A stretch of 64,000 nt of DNA, taken from the sequence record OZ346222.1; one strand, 5' to 3'. This stretch comes from a phage. Both the position numbers and the translations under genes were made by a program. Below are positions 15,356 to 30,191 of this stretch, piece after piece; position 1 is the stretch's first letter, and the number at the start of each line of letters is the position of its first letter. Under the pieces are notes generated by a model. It had not been told where the DNA came from, did no database searches, and worked only from the letters and a program-made list of their open reading frames with translations.

Positions 15356-15550
15356 GTACTCGATCTGTTTTTCATTTCAAAGACCTGATTTTCTGAAAAT
15401 TTTTCTCGATAAATTTCTTAGTACTCGATCTGTTTTTCATTTCAAAGACCTGATTTTCTGAAAATTTTTCTCGATAAATTTCTTAGTACTCGATCTGTTT
15501 TTCGTTTTCTGAATCGGATTTTCTGGAAATCGTTCCAGCTCTCGACCTGA
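15356..15550 (+). repeat. tandem direct repeat, about 65-bp unit, 2 perfect copies plus 1 degenerate
   Basis: GTACTCGATCTGTTTTTCATTTCAAAGACCTGATTTTCTGAAAATTTTTCTCGATAAATTTCTTA repeated head-to-tail; within a 1.1-kb ORF-poor island. Confidence 0.8.
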
Positions 15551-15744
15551 AATTTTTGGGGACGAAATCGATTTTTCGTTTTCAGAAATGGATTTTTAAA
15601 ATTTCTATATGGGAATATTTTATGGGATACTGTTTTATAGGAAATTGTTACGGAGGGTAATTAGCATGCTAATTAAATTTATTAAATGCGAGGAGTTCTC
15701 ATTTAGAATTTTGAATGATAATCATTCTCGTTTGCAGAATAACG

Positions 15745-15915
15745 GGCAGGCCCGGTGATTGTCTCCCGGCCCCTACTGCCCCGGCTTGTTATTATAGTAT
15801 CACACAGGACAAAGAAAGCAAGGATTTTTTGCATAAATTTTTAAATGATAATGATAACCGTTCTCATTTTATGCAGCGCCCATCCCCGGTGGTTGTCTCC
15901 CCCGTCACCGGTGCC
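15745..15915 (+). repeat. GC-rich dispersed repeat pair (GGCAGGCCnGGTGATTGTCTCCC-like)
   Basis: Two related copies about 150 bp apart, each preceded by GATAAT ... TGCAG; inverted copy at 25520-25545. Confidence 0.5.
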
Positions 15916-25572: not shown

Positions 25573-25601
25573 TTGACATCTGCCAGGGGGTGGGGTAACA
25601 T
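25573..25601 (+). promoter_or_regulatory. sigma70-type promoter
   Basis: TTGACA, 17-bp spacer, TAACAT; followed by leader hairpin. Confidence 0.5.
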
Positions 25602-25655
25602 TTATCTTGAAGGGGCAAAGGTGCCCACACAACAACCAGAAGAGAGGAAAACACT

Positions 25656-25928
25656 ATGTCAAGCTGGATTAATCAAGAAGTCGAATCACGTTTTAATGCT
25701 ATTTGGGATCTCATCGAAAAAGAAGACGGCACATCAAGCCCCTACCTCAACAATTTGGAATTCCATTTTGTGGAAGCGATGAACGCAGAACATGATCACG
25801 AAGGTGGTGCGGACGAGTTCGCTAAAGGGTATGGCTTCAACAATGCCAACGAAATGATCGAGGCGGTTGTACTCCAGGCTGAGGAAGATTATCAATTAAA
25901 AACGCTTGAATTCTGCCGCCGCAAGTAA
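25656..25928 (+). CDS. hypothetical acidic protein (90 aa)
   Basis: Conserved leader/RBS. Confidence 0.5.
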   Translation: MSSWINQEVESRFNAIWDLIEKEDGTSSPYLNNLEFHFVEAMNAEHDHEGGADEFAKGYGFNNANEMIEAVVLQAEEDYQLKTLEFCRRK

Positions 25929-25988
25929 TAAGATAATGACACGGGCCGGGAGGCCCACTAATCAGAACCACACAAAGAGGTAAACATC

Positions 25989-26252
25989 ATGAAACGTCTT
26001 GATCAGCTTAAACTAGTTCAGTACATGGCCTACAAAGTTCTTGAAGTCCAAAAAGGTAGCAAAAAAGAGGTTTGCGAGAAAGCGTACAAGATCTTTACCC
26101 GTAAAAAAGATGATTGGATGTTACGCCAGACCAAAAAAGCCGATATCTTGGGGTACCTGGAAGAAGAGATCCGACTTGAAGAGCAAGAAGAGATCCGCCG
26201 CAGTGAGGCAGATTATCAGGCAGCCTGGGAAAACTGGATGAGCAACAAATAA
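25989..26252 (+). CDS. hypothetical protein (87 aa)
   Basis: Conserved leader/RBS. Confidence 0.5.
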   Translation: MKRLDQLKLVQYMAYKVLEVQKGSKKEVCEKAYKIFTRKKDDWMLRQTKKADILGYLEEEIRLEEQEEIRRSEADYQAAWENWMSNK

Positions 26253-26319
26253 TACAACAAGTTGCACGATCAGGGGGCAATAAAGCCCCTTGATCACATA
26301 AAAATTATGCTATCCTTGG

Positions 26320-26348
26320 TTGACAAGGATCGGCAGTTTTGCTATATT
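26320..26348 (+). promoter_or_regulatory. sigma70-type promoter
   Basis: TTGACA, 17-bp spacer, TATATT. Confidence 0.5.
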
Positions 26349-26396
26349 CTTTTTGAAGGGAAGTTGTAAGAAAATTAACTAAGAGGTAAAAACACC

Positions 26397-26816
26397 ATGA
26401 ACATTAAATCTAATAATCCGGCATATAGCTTTGATAACGCTTTTTGTCACGGTCCGGCGGCGAAAGGATTCGAAATCGATGGTAAACTAATTATTGTCAA
26501 TGTTGACGGGGAAGAGGTTGCAGTATATCCGGTGGCAGACGTAAAAAGCCGTTTACAATGCCGCATGGATGTTACCGCCTATCAGCTTGATCCGGTCCGC
26601 ATAGTTGCCCTGGTCCTGGAAGAAGAAATTAAAGCCATGCACCATAGCAACAGATTTATTGGTGACGCGCAGGATAATATGAAAGTATGCCGCCATAAAG
26701 TTAATGAAGTGCTTAAAGAGTACGGCTATAAAGATCTTATGATCAAACGTGAGGAAAAATTCCGCTACCGTAACGACCTGGCAAATCGGATTTTTGAAAT
26801 ATACGAATCATTATAA
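26397..26816 (+). CDS. hypothetical protein (139 aa)
   Basis: RBS AAGAGG; last gene of rightward block. Confidence 0.5.
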   Translation: MNIKSNNPAYSFDNAFCHGPAAKGFEIDGKLIIVNVDGEEVAVYPVADVKSRLQCRMDVTAYQLDPVRIVALVLEEEIKAMHHSNRFIGDAQDNMKVCRHKVNEVLKEYGYKDLMIKREEKFRYRNDLANRIFEIYESL

Positions 26817-26834
26817 TTTTTTAACTGAATTATC

Positions 26835-26860
26835 AAGGGGCTTAGGCCCCTTTCTTTTTG
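26835..26860 (+). terminator. rho-independent terminator
   Basis: AAGGGGC-TTAG-GCCCCTT hairpin followed by TCTTTTT. Confidence 0.6.
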
Positions 26861-27477
26861 TCTGCTCTTCCCCCTACCATAAACGGCCCTACCTGGCAAG
26901 TGGAATAATTGACGAGCCATCAATCCCACACACTGTACAAATATACATGTAAAATAACTATTGCATAACCTTTCATTGTGTGGTAGCGGTGCTATTTTTT
27001 ACCTGTTTTCCTTCCAAAATTGCACGTAATGCAGCTATTGCACAAAATTTAACCTGATGCACATCTCCAATATCCTGTCAACAACTAAAAATCTTTATAA
27101 GTCATACACTTACACAGCATCGAAAGCGTGTTCTACGCGAAAAATCGAGTATAACTATAGCCGCCAGATCTCAGAATTCACGTACGCACGCCATTCTATA
27201 GCCTGCAAAGTATTTATTCCAACCACAGAATAACGGAATAGTCAATACCTGAATAAAATAATTATTCGTTTAAACTGCATAACATAAATCAGCTCAGGTG
27301 TCAACATTTTTCGTAAACAGTCTGAAATTGTCACTGTGAGTTATCATAAACAGAGAAATCTTTAGTCGTATAATGTTTACTGTACGTTACTATACTGACT
27401 GGAATCATTAGATGACTAATAGAAAGATAAGAAATAATTAACAATACAATTATTTTACCTGTAACAATAAGACAACT

Positions 27478-27726
27478 ATGCAAACGAATGGCATGGCGCG
27501 ACGGAGTCGCGACATAATATAAAAGCAGTAACCATCACCCCCGTGATGGTTTGTCTGCAATCTATTAATCAGATCATAGTTGCCTTGTATTCAGTTAATC
27601 ATGACATAATAAGCAAGGCAACTATAGATCTGCTAATAGTTGCCCTGCTTTTATATTATGTCATATATTATTAACTTGTTAATTGTTAACTTGCTAATTG
27701 TTTTCATGCAAACGAATGTCATGGCT
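27478..27726. repeat. palindrome-rich module flanked by 21-bp direct repeats
   Basis: ATGCAAACGAATG(G/T)CATGGC at 27478 and 27706; perfect 18-bp inverted repeat GACATAATATAAAAGCAG / CTGCTTTTATATTATGTC (27510/27645); 12-bp inverted repeat CATAGTTGCCTTG / CAAGGCAACTATG; several short hairpins. Confidence 0.75.
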
Positions 27727-27734
27727 TATCCTAT

Positions 27735-27805
27735 CTGTGTAAACAGTTAAGGTGTAAACTATCCAGGCGTAAACAGTCTATGCGGGAACAATCTATACGT
27801 GAACA
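27735..27805. repeat. iteron-like array of GT(A/G)AACAG octamers
   Basis: GTAAACAG / GTAAACTA / GTAAACAG / GTGAACAG spaced 10-20 bp; further copies near 27313, 28078, 28790. Confidence 0.6.
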
Positions 27806-28357
27806 GTGAAACATGAAATAATAACAGTCGTTATTGTGTCGAAAGTGTATAAGGTGTCAGACAAGTTTTTCTCCTCTTTGTCAAGTGCTGCATGAAAAAT
27901 TTACAAGCTTGTATGGTAGCATTTTTGCGGCCCTGTTTACATTCAGCGATGTATGTATAATCCTTGTTGTGTGGGCGTTTAGACGTCTAGACGGTCAGAA
28001 GTCTGCAGGTTAATACCTAATCTATCGGCTGCTAACTATATCCCACACAAATAGTAAGAAATATAATTGTTATGTGCGTAAACAGTAACTCATGTTATCA
28101 ATCCCTGTATGTATCGCCAGTGGTGCGCATAATGGGTATTATGTTAAATTGCCCGTAATGATAACTATTCTCACAATGATAGGTATTCTCATTCACTCCC
28201 ACAAGATAGGTTGCAAATGTTGTGCCACTGTGTGAACGGCCTAACCTATTAATTTGCCTCACTGCCTCGATATTTGAGAATTGTTATAAGAATGAGAAGT
28301 ATTCCCATTTCGTCCGCCTGGCAGCACTCCAGTCGCTACCGCTCATGACAGGGCAGA

Positions 28358-29610
28358 ACTAGACCCTCTTCAGATATTTCTGGCTGACTCTTCAGGTCTG
28401 TGTGGGAAAAGCCAACCTCTCCGGCGGCGGGGAGGGGGTCAATTAAAAAAAATTACGTGGTGCATGAAGCGCTCTTCAGGTAAGGCATGTGTTATGGGAT
28501 GAAACCCTCTTCAGGCAATGATATTTGTGGGTGTGATATTTGCTGGAAAGCCAGATATGACGGGACTCCTGGCGGGGCAGGGGTAGTACAGACAGGGAAA
28601 ATATGGGGGATGTAGTTGGGGAAATTGATCAGACAGGTAGAGTATGGAATATGTTACAAGTATGTTAAATAGGGAGGATGAATATCTGCAGGATTTGTGT
28701 GTAAAATCAAAGACTTAAGTGGTGTTGTGGTATTTTCTATAAATAATTCAAGTTTAATAGGTAATATTTGTCTCTATCCACTTTGTGTGGTAAACAGATT
28801 CAGATGAAATTGGTTTACAAGTGTATACATAATATACAAATTAAAGATACAAGAAACCCCCCTCCCCCTTCGGCTACCATTCACCTTTTCCTCTGACTGG
28901 TACTTAAACACTTATTCAGACTCTTCAGGTTATCACCCATATATCATATGGCAGTGACTGGTGTCCTCCGGCCCCTCTTTCGTCACCCGTCCGCTTCGCC
29001 ATGCTAATGCCATAGCCAATGGTTCGGTTGTTCACTCTGTTCACTCAGGTGTATCTCCATACCCCTTCAAACCGAAGAGAACAGAAAACCCGAATTACTC
29101 GGTAAAAGAAAAGAGAAGAACTTAATTTTATCAGGATAGGCAAGAATGTCAAGGCATGACTGCTCACTAAACAAGCAAACAGTCATGTGTGGAAGGTAAG
29201 TGATTGTGGTGGTGGGAAATTTAGTTGAAAGATGTGTTATAGGTGCGCTTCCAGCACTTTGGCCGGGCAGCTAATTGTGTGTCAGTCCAGCGGTTCATCC
29301 TCTACTTCACTGAAATCAATGTTCATGGTCTCCTCCCAACCATCGATCTCAGCACAAGAGTGGAGTTCTTTAGGGTTTACTCCCAAAGCCTCAGCAACAG
29401 AGTCTATATTTAACACCTCTGGCAGGTATGATTCATCGAATTCAAGGTAAATCAGGCCACGAGTGTTGTCAGCTCCACCAAATATCTCTATCTTCATGAA
29501 ATCTCCTCTGGAAATGAGAGTGTGAACAGGGTTTTATACGTTCTAATGCACAGGAATTATACACGTTTGCCTCTTCAGGCCATGCTTTAGCATGAGGAAC
29601 CTGTGTGGGC
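28358..29610. repeat. dispersed CTCTTCAG(G) motifs, often followed by TGTGTGGG
   Basis: Six copies on the same strand (about 28358, 28388, 28465, 28505, 28918, 29567) within a G/T-rich non-coding stretch. Confidence 0.6.
29282..29497 (-). CDS. hypothetical acidic protein (71 aa)
   Basis: Last gene of leftward block; begins MKIEI like several paralogs. Confidence 0.45.
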   Translation of the reverse strand: MKIEIFGGADNTRGLIYLEFDESYLPEVLNIDSVAEALGVNPKELHSCAEIDGWEETMNIDFSEVEDEPLD

Positions 29611-29618
29611 TCGGTGCT

Positions 29619-29831
29619 TCATAGTCTACCACCTCTGAACTCTTCGTGCTCAGGCATAATAGAGAACCAGATATCTACGATGTCCTCCCACGTCAGGTCA
29701 TCAGCCTCAGGATCTGTCTGGGACGAAGATGAAGAGTCCTCAGAATCTAAGTTTTCCTCTTTAACTGGCTCATCCAAGGGACATATGGTCACTCCTTCGG
29801 ATGTCTCTTCAGATGCATGTGTGTTGATCAT
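29619..29831 (-). CDS. hypothetical highly acidic protein (70 aa)
   Basis: Asp/Glu/Ser-rich. Confidence 0.4.
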   Translation of the reverse strand: MINTHASEETSEGVTICPLDEPVKEENLDSEDSSSSSQTDPEADDLTWEDIVDIWFSIMPEHEEFRGGRL

Positions 29832-30191
29832 GTTCCCCCCGTGAGTATTCCGGCAACAGCCGCTATGGAAGTAATGATCATCAGGATCACCACTAAAACT
29901 TCAGACAATGTTCTCATTGTGTATTCCATATTCTCCAAACTGTGTGTGGATACTATCACGGGAGCGGTAATGTGTCAACAGCAACGCCGCGAGGGTTTGG
30001 TTAAAATCCGAGCGTATGGTGATTTGGGTCAAAACGGACGTGCGTTCTCGCTACGCTCGAAAGAGAGACTTGTTTGTAGAAAGCTCTTAAACGCTCTGTA
30101 ACGAGATTATCTGTCCAAGGTATGCAATCGTGCACCAGATAAAGAAAAGGACGCCACAGAGCGTCCTAGGTGTCTTAAATTTGATATTTTG

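Follow-up and report, generated by a model that had tools for sequence, protein, structure and literature searches.

The stretch of DNA analysed here, 64,000 nt of sequence record OZ346222.1 (called the window in what follows), belongs to a Vequintavirus, an rV5-like myovirus of about 136 kb among the Escherichia phages. Within it lies a non-coding region of about 2.4 kb (26861–29281), toward which two gene blocks converge. Very probably the two ends of the linear virion chromosome come together in this region, around a direct terminal repeat of 459 bp. Annotated relatives place rightward genes up to 26816, the last of them encoding 139 amino acids (26397–26816), and leftward genes from 29282 onward, the first encoding 71 amino acids (29282–29497), which agrees with the converging blocks described in a first-pass annotation of the window. 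The rightward block is closed by an intrinsic terminator on the plus strand (26835–26860), a G+C-rich hairpin with a T-run that was found by a terminator scan. Its stem and T-run are kept in 16/16 genomes around a variable loop (counts out of 16 refer, here and below, to an alignment of the window with 15 relatives, all of them Vequintavirus genomes), and it is annotated as a terminator in the records of Alma, Murica and EdH4. The cumulative GC skew reaches its maximum at this region.

The region and its surroundings match about 100 GenBank records of Vequintavirus at 92–95% identity by BLAST, with phage A6-1 as the top match for the region (95.5%), and a search of IMG/VR viral contigs for further relatives returned two loci only. 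A six-frame scan found no open reading frame (ORF) of at least 60 amino acids wholly inside 26861–29281. At this cut-off the ORF-free interval spans 26953–29231 (2,279 bp), and the runner-up in the window measures 318 bp. Shuffled versions of the segment were likewise free of such ORFs in 42 of 500 shuffles; the length is ordinary against random sequence and exceptional only against the dense coding in the rest of the window. A tRNA/tmRNA scan was negative across the whole window, and a scan of 26000–30000 against Rfam at a permissive E value of up to 1 gave zero matches. Several repeat families are present above chance expectation. In these three respects, the lack of ORFs, the lack of tRNAs and the presence of repeats, the first-pass annotation described the region correctly. 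In rV5, the same stretch is the interval separating ORF 163 and ORF 164. The rV5 paper (Kropinski et al. 2013, PMC3606486) draws it as a grey "non-coding" box that "contained no ORFs" and, in its searchable text, leaves it unexplained. According to the same text, bidirectional terminators were expected at genes 163/164 and none were found there, and no terminal repeats or termini are reported for rV5 in it.

The probable nature of the region is indicated by the ends of deposited genomes. The records of two close relatives, EdH4 and HdK5, each show an exact repeat of 459 bp at either end, and both copies map to the window from 28318 to 27860, the records starting at 28318 and ending at 27860. 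Korf et al. 2019 gave terminal redundancies of 458 bp for these two phages (PMC6563267). The window holds a single copy of this direct terminal repeat (27860–28318), situated where the 3' ends of both blocks of genes face each other and flanked by right-end unique DNA on one side and left-end unique DNA on the other, as would be seen in an assembly of a genome with T7-type ends. Repeat searches turned up no second copy of the boundary motifs elsewhere in the window. Because the end repeats of EdH4 and HdK5 map to this single copy, the window is read as a permuted assembly with a collapsed repeat. Further records end at the same positions. In a sensitive BLAST search, EdH4, Pr121LW, Aya, YN3 and ECP2309 break at query position 1041 (window 27860), and bov10K2 and bov22_2 break at query position 1499 (window 28318). 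The Pr121LW record, an earlier deposit with a lower accession number, opens at 27860 and closes one base before it with the repeat not duplicated. The version-2 records of bov10K2 and bov22_2 open at 28318/28319, the revised bov10K2 record opening at 28318 and closing at 28319. Among the three readings offered by the first-pass annotation, the published ends of relatives and the exact mapping of record ends support the terminal-repeat junction of a permuted assembly.

The record ends define two candidate cleavage sites, in which a slash marks the cut. The left site is TGTCA/GACAAGT (27855–27866), and the left end of the virion DNA would begin at 27860. The right site is GTCCGCC/TGGCAGCACTCC (28312–28330), and the right end would lie at 28318. 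The sequence is invariant across both borders in 16/16 genomes, on the left from 27855 onward, so that fixed and sequence-defined borders of the T7 type are common to the relatives both in their record ends and in their border sequence. Inside the borders, the repeat has no indel of at least 20 nt in the 15 relatives, and 17% of its columns are polymorphic. Beyond the borders, hypervariability sets in after 5 nt on the left and after 12 nt on the right, where conservation extends to 28330. The left hypervariable stretch (27665–27854) is polymorphic in 96% of its columns, and the right one (28331–28365) in 83%, with insertions of 33–66 nt at 28342 in five relatives. Most indels of at least 20 nt fall within these stretches. 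Outside them, only rV5 (a 33-nt insertion at 27606) and FV3 (deletions from 27563) are affected on the left side; on the right side, WM and FV3 have insertions at 28436, and I29 has one of 594 nt at 28579. Since the switch between invariant and hypervariable sequence falls exactly at the positions taken from the literature, the borders are independently supported. Comparison with related phage genomes, which the first-pass annotation had named as a check, found borders, repeat and much of the flanks conserved.

Two side observations concern the DNA around the borders. Short G+C-rich hairpin cassettes occur in both hypervariable stretches of most relatives (for example GAAACACCCGAAGGGGTGACCGAAGGTCACCTGGC at 27665), and the cassette at 28342 (33–66 nt) differs from the one at 27665. 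The 594-bp insertion of I29, at the equivalent of window position 28579, includes an annotated ORF of 60 amino acids (I29_150); the non-coding right flank can take extra cargo, as this insertion demonstrates.

The same arrangement is found in other genera. In the Mydovirus KPP-1, a 514-bp terminal repeat was established by doubled coverage and by PhageTerm, which assigned T7-type packaging (PMC9862379), and the same 514 bp are annotated as a repeat_region at the start of the DP record. In each of KPP-1, PVP-SE1 and GAP31, rightward and leftward genes likewise run toward an ORF-poor gap of about 2 kb that contains the repeat or its homologue. When the window region was compared with other genera by BLAST, the outcome was one 37-nt match only; this method being too insensitive, the genera were compared by profiles and by alignment anchored at the borders. 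In the border-anchored alignment, the left end reads GACAAGTTTTTCTCCTCTTTGTCAAG in the window and AACACAATTCTCTCTCCTTGTCAAG in KPP-1. The right end reads GTCCGCC/TGGCA in the window and GTCCGTC/TAGCA in KPP-1, the latter form being that of Mydovirus and Seunavirus. Read outward, the pentamers flanking the repeat form an inverted T-R-R-C-A, the window having TGACA and TGGCA, and KPP-1 and PVP-SE1 having TAGCA at either border. Such inverted pentamers would fit cuts on opposite strands by one enzyme, although the motifs are very short.

Between the two ends, the repeat carries a core, GGTGCGCATAATGGGTATTATGTTAAATTGCC (28122–28153, plus strand), that is invariant in 15/16 Vequintavirus genomes. 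Within the region, significant similarity to Seunavirus is confined to these 32 nt (nhmmer E values of 6e-6 and 9e-6). The core carries a possible extended −10 element pointing rightward (TGtTAAATT, 28142–28150). Taken together, the window phage resembles KPP-1, DP, PVP-SE1 and GAP31 in the position of the repeat in an ORF-poor convergent gap, in alignable ends (…CTCCTTGTCAAG on the left and GTCCGyC/TrGCA on the right), in the common core, in oriented CTTCAGG motifs on one side and in enriched Fur-box-like palindromes. It differs from Mydovirus and Seunavirus in that most of the sequence is beyond detection by BLAST and in the length of the repeat (459 bp versus 514 bp), and these genera are without the near-invariant block of 350 bp and the array of 15-mers described below.

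Collectively, these observations make it very probable that the region is the concatemer junction of Vequintavirus, where the ends of the linear virion chromosome meet at the 459-bp direct terminal repeat (27860–28318). In the replicating concatemer, one copy of the repeat would lie between successive genomes, as it does in the window. Terminase would cut at fixed sites, 27859/27860 (TGTCA/GACAAG) and 28318/28319 (GTCCGCC/TGGCAG), and the repeat would be duplicated. The packaged chromosome would then start at 27860, extend rightward through the whole genome and finish at 28318, bearing one copy of the repeat at each end, a short exact-repeat strategy as in T7. Transcription of the two terminal gene blocks would be directed outward, toward the ends. 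On either side of the repeat, about 1 kb of conserved non-coding sequence may carry the cis signals for end recognition, processing and the stop of transcription. Candidates for these signals are a series of oriented motifs and a G+C-rich hairpin on the left-end side, the palindromes and the core in the repeat, and the terminator hairpins; in addition, an invariant host-type promoter at 29152 would fire toward the junction.

For close relatives the terminal repeat is already in the literature, which makes the core finding an ordinary one, and no new kind of system is disclosed. EdH4 and HdK5 (PMC6563267) and the non-coding box of rV5 (PMC3606486) represent the same locus, with conserved borders and in the same gap between ORFs. 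The window phage is at most 95.5% identical to any record here, and its own ends would be those of its relatives. As far as their searchable texts go, these two papers neither tie the non-coding box to the chromosome ends nor describe the flanking motifs. Not described in the papers searched are the series of oriented motifs, the operators that resemble Fur boxes and the near-invariant block with its promoter. In the general model, concatemers carry one copy of an exact repeat, which is duplicated at packaging (Merrill et al. 2016, PMC5000459). The proposed junction is like that of T7 and T3 in outline, with one repeat per concatemer junction, cuts at fixed borders and duplication of the repeat on packaging (PMC5000459). 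Unlike T7, to which it has no sequence relationship, the window phage is a myovirus with a genome of about 136 kb; its promoters are of the host type, and no phage RNA polymerase was identified here. Furthermore, the left-end genes of T7 are transcribed inward from the end, whereas both terminal blocks of the window phage point outward. T7 also has arrays of short repeats beside its terminal repeat.

The left flank of the repeat is composed of two parts. The first (26861–27477) is conserved non-coding DNA with 85–95% identity to the 15 relatives and no indel of at least 20 nt; the small ORFs in it are broken by stops or frameshifts in relatives. In the virion, this unique DNA would directly precede the repeat copy at the right end. 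A promoter-like site at 27347–27374 was rejected, the −10 hexamer being TCTAAT in 15/16 relatives. The second part begins with an AT-rich composite element (27478–27725) that was delineated by repeat searches. It contains a 20-nt direct repeat (27478–27497 and 27706–27725), 18-nt perfect inverted arms (27511–27528 and 27645–27662) and a strong hairpin (27530–27551) that folds at −17.9 kcal/mol on the plus strand (z −6.6) and at −13.6 kcal/mol on the minus strand (z −4.4). It also contains three ATAGTTGCC boxes, at 27576, 27617 (minus strand) and 27636; the window holds five such boxes versus 0.64 expected, three of them within 27576–27644. The parts of the element are conserved in 14–15/16 relatives and largely deleted in FV3. 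A tandem array of 15-bp units of the GTAAACAG type follows at 27737–27810 (27737–27807 in the repeat search), inside the left hypervariable stretch. The number of units varies among the 16 genomes from none (V18, FV3 and bov10K2) up to about six recognisable copies (rV5 and Murica).

These elements raise the question of a replication origin, another of the readings proposed in the first-pass annotation. The AT-rich left flank (27200–27860) in particular could hold such an origin, with the GTAAACAG units as iterons and the palindrome and direct repeats as the site of unwinding and initiator loading, and it could coexist with a terminal repeat. The G+C content of 27001–28000 (0.358) is indeed the lowest of the neighbourhood, and the 15-mer array, the 20-nt direct repeats, the 18-nt inverted arms and the three ATAGTTGCC boxes, most of them present in 14–15/16 relatives, speak for it. 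An iteron origin, however, would be expected to keep an array of initiator repeats beside AT-rich DNA, and here the array is variable, down to none in the three phages named above. The composite element and the array look dispensable, since FV3, a published and viable phage, is without most of 27563–27850 (including one inverted arm, two boxes and one copy of the direct repeat) and since V18 and bov10K2 are without the array. No initiator gene adjoins the region. Moreover, forks starting at this maximum of the cumulative GC skew would run head-on into both converging gene blocks, and the GC-skew search for an origin in rV5 gave, in the searchable text of that paper, only shifts that follow the direction of transcription (PMC3606486). 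We therefore regard an origin at this position as unlikely.

The right flank, which would be left-end DNA of the chromosome next to the repeat, is marked by a series of oriented motifs. Five copies of (GA)CTCTTCAGG lie on the plus strand at 28366, 28388, 28472, 28507 and 28921 (28366–28929), and four of the five are conserved in 14–16/16 relatives. The sequence CTCTTCAGR occurs 11 times in the window versus 1.47 expected, with five occurrences within 28366–28929. A strand bias of CTCTTCAGR over the whole genome was dismissed, for the copies outside the region lie in coding DNA as GAAGAG codons on the coding strand; for this reason only the cluster beside the repeat is meaningful. The CTCTTCAGG motifs are confined to the right flank and to a single orientation, and the same holds for PVP-SE1, KPP-1, DP and GAP31. 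PVP-SE1 has six copies, arrayed in part at a spacing of 23–24 bp, and a 17-mer, GGCTGACTCTTCAGGTC, is identical in the window and in GAP31. Our best guess, by analogy, is that the series represents putative binding sites of terminase or of an accessory packaging protein. In phage lambda, the cos region combines the nicking site cosN with the one-sided array cosB, which positions the small terminase subunit; lambda has 12-nt cohesive ends and no terminal repeat. The likeness of the CTCTTCAGG series to cosB, a cleavage site with oriented short repeats on one side, is an analogy. As a side observation, TGTGTGG occurs 27 times in the window versus 8.7 expected, 11 of these within about 4.3 kb around the region (25600–30000), and several copies come after CTCTTCAGG motifs.

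Among these motifs, about 100 nt outside the repeat, stands a G+C-rich hairpin (CCTCTCC ... GGAGGGG, 28416–28437, plus strand), which folds at −18.6 kcal/mol on the plus strand (z −2.5) versus −10.4 kcal/mol on the minus strand. PVP-SE1 and GAP31 have a similar CCCTCCGGGCGGGGGAGGGG hairpin after the repeat, followed by a T-run.

Further to the right lies a near-invariant non-coding block (28850–29200) that is specific to Vequintavirus. Only 16 of its 351 columns are polymorphic (4.6%), a variability equal to that of codon positions 1 and 2 of the neighbouring gene (4–6%) and far below that of its third positions (26%). A periodicity of 3 nt is not seen among the variable sites, and the block is 96.5–100% identical across 118 records. 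A profile search found no homologue in other genera, and no host copy was found in E. coli genomes. The block contains a near-consensus sigma-70 promoter on the minus strand (29152 to 29125), with TTGACA, a 16-nt spacer and TG-n-TAAAAT, that is directed leftward, toward the repeat. It matches the consensus at 11 of 12 hexamer positions and has the TG element, and both hexamers are invariant in 16/16 relatives. A weak hairpin with a U-run is located at 29102–29090.

A promoter of this quality inside such a block keeps a transcript possible, and the region could encode one or more non-coding RNAs, the remaining reading of the first-pass annotation. One such RNA would start from the promoter at 29152 and run leftward through the near-invariant block, and another, of about 280 nt, would run rightward from the core near 28157 to the hairpin at 28416–28437. 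The constraint on the block, as strong as on non-synonymous codon positions and with no coding periodicity, would suit the first, and the greater stability of the hairpin on the plus strand, together with the T-run in the Seunavirus phages, would suit the second. Against both stands the Rfam scan, which gave no match at an E value of up to 1. On both strands, the predicted folding of the 281-nt core of the block stays at the level of shuffled sequence (z −0.56 and −0.13), so that neither a family match nor folding above shuffled sequence marks the block as a structured RNA. With 16 variable columns in 351 and no homologue found in another genus, the block offers too little variation to test for compensatory changes. 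Literature searches brought up no transcript data for Vequintavirus. Overall, a non-coding RNA appears improbable as the explanation of the region. A hammerhead-like reading of CUGAAGAG on the minus strand was also dropped, Rfam finding no ribozyme.

The terminal repeat itself contains four operator-like palindromes of the form AATGAKAAs-N-ATTCyCA (28157–28173, 28175–28191, 28275–28289 and 28291–28307), three of which were recovered by the repeat searches as an 18-bp palindromic motif (28157, 28175 and 28291). Among relatives, the half-sites are conserved and the central spacer is variable, the pattern that marks binding sites of protein dimers. The tandem sites at 28154 and 28172 match the 19-bp Fur consensus of E. 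coli, GATAATGATAATCATTATC, at 14 and 13 positions, respectively. In the whole window, 16 sites agree with it at 14 or more of the 19 positions versus 2.8 expected, with a maximum of 9 in 100 nulls. The binding protein could equally be Fur or a protein encoded by the phage, whose consensus leans toward TGAGAAy-N-ATTCTCA. Literature searches for Fur boxes in lytic phages or for this enrichment of palindromes returned nothing relevant. The more general 7-1-7 palindromes (TGATAAT-N-ATTATCA with up to three mismatches) occur 21 times in the window versus 6.2 expected. In the terminal non-coding regions of other phages they number 7 versus 0.47 in PVP-SE1, 8 versus 0.58 in KPP-1 and 5 versus 0.36 in GAP31.

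Two other candidates within the repeat did not hold up. The TATAAT box that the first-pass annotation had placed near 27945, pointing rightward, is in fact the hexamer 27956–27961; it has no −35 hexamer at a distance of 16–18 nt, and its critical last T is lost in 6/16 relatives, so its reading as a promoter was abandoned. A MetJ box was considered for AGACGTCTAGACG (27981–27993), where the lone perfect 8-mer is about at chance level in 64 kb.

The Fur-box-like operators, the promoter-like element of the core and the promoter-bearing 350-bp block might together make the chromosome ends a regulatory hub. Transcription into the junction, or the iron status sensed through Fur, would then control the processing of ends, packaging or early events. 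In T7, the promoter phiOR fires toward the junction, and pausing of the polymerase there aids maturation. The hub would be loosely analogous to phiOR and this pause site, with host factors in their place. We mention this possibility as a speculative one that deserves rather little credence.

Several points weigh against the reading of the region as a terminal-repeat junction. The ends are taken from relatives that are 92–95% identical here. Depositors may have re-oriented some of the records with a start at 27860 to fit earlier ones, and hence the records may not all be independent. About 2 kb of the 2.4 kb are explained by analogy only. Lastly, PhageTerm gave "circular permutated" in a report on bov10K2 and related Vequintavirus phages and "headful (PAC-type)" in a report on the Vequintavirus BpE1AUH. 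These two results would favour headful packaging from a pac site in the region, in which case the fixed ends would be the first cut of a packaging series only and the virion DNA would be terminally redundant and partly permuted. A headful phage, however, would show one sharp end only, whereas phages sequenced independently share two precise borders at a distance of exactly 459 bp, exact repeats stand at both ends of the EdH4 and HdK5 records, and the doubled coverage of KPP-1 is limited to its 514 bp, with a T7-type result from PhageTerm. Despite the "circular permutated" result, the revised bov10K2 record starts precisely at the repeat border. The permuted and headful results weigh less than the end repeats, the two recurrent borders and the coverage of KPP-1 taken together, and headful packaging from this region is quite unlikely.

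Short protein genes below the cut-off of 60 amino acids, finally, are the least credible content of the region: several depositors annotated small hypothetical ORFs here (13 in Mangalyan and 3 in JEP1) and a few small ORFs are intact in 14–15/15 relatives, but the annotations are inconsistent between records, stops or frameshifts disrupt the majority of 17 tested ORFs of 36–59 amino acids in most relatives, those left intact are all located in near-invariant DNA (where intactness is trivial) and show substitutions without a third-position bias, no ribosome-binding site was seen before the candidate ORFs inspected, and small-ORF and periodicity tests accordingly found none of the conserved small genes that the first-pass annotation had named as grounds for giving up its readings.

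For annotators, the junction shows where such a genome starts and ends; most of the approximately 120 public Vequintavirus records were opened at an arbitrary position, and in many of them small "hypothetical proteins" that are spurious have been annotated along the stretch. Strong selection acts on about 2 kb of non-coding DNA by the ends, and the oriented motifs are common to four genera. The region thereby offers candidate sites for terminase recognition and for regulation in a group of phages with wide use against E. coli O157 and in therapy cocktails.

Some observations concern the neighbourhood and the records themselves. The 139-amino-acid gene before the region (26397–26816) is absent or replaced in EdH4, Alma, WM and FV3, in which a gene of 87 amino acids (264 bp; "DNA translocase" in WM) is the last before the non-coding region. 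Where it is present, its conservation is only about 82%, below that of the adjoining non-coding DNA. A set of 19 MG0656xx records (for example MG065659.1 and MG065655.1), entered as "Campylobacter phage" with Campylobacter jejuni as the host, are 88–94% identical to 26820–29290; some of them are fragments of 75–88 kb, and they look mislabelled or contaminated. The highest-scoring Fur-box-like sites of the window lie elsewhere, at 15711–15729 (15/19) and 15847–15865 (16/19), and belong to the same palindrome family as those in the terminal repeat. They stand in a second ORF-poor stretch of low G+C content (15380–15900; 0.38) with reversed skew, which may be a regulated promoter region and which also contains a tandem direct repeat of about 60 bp (15380–15438 and 15440–15498).

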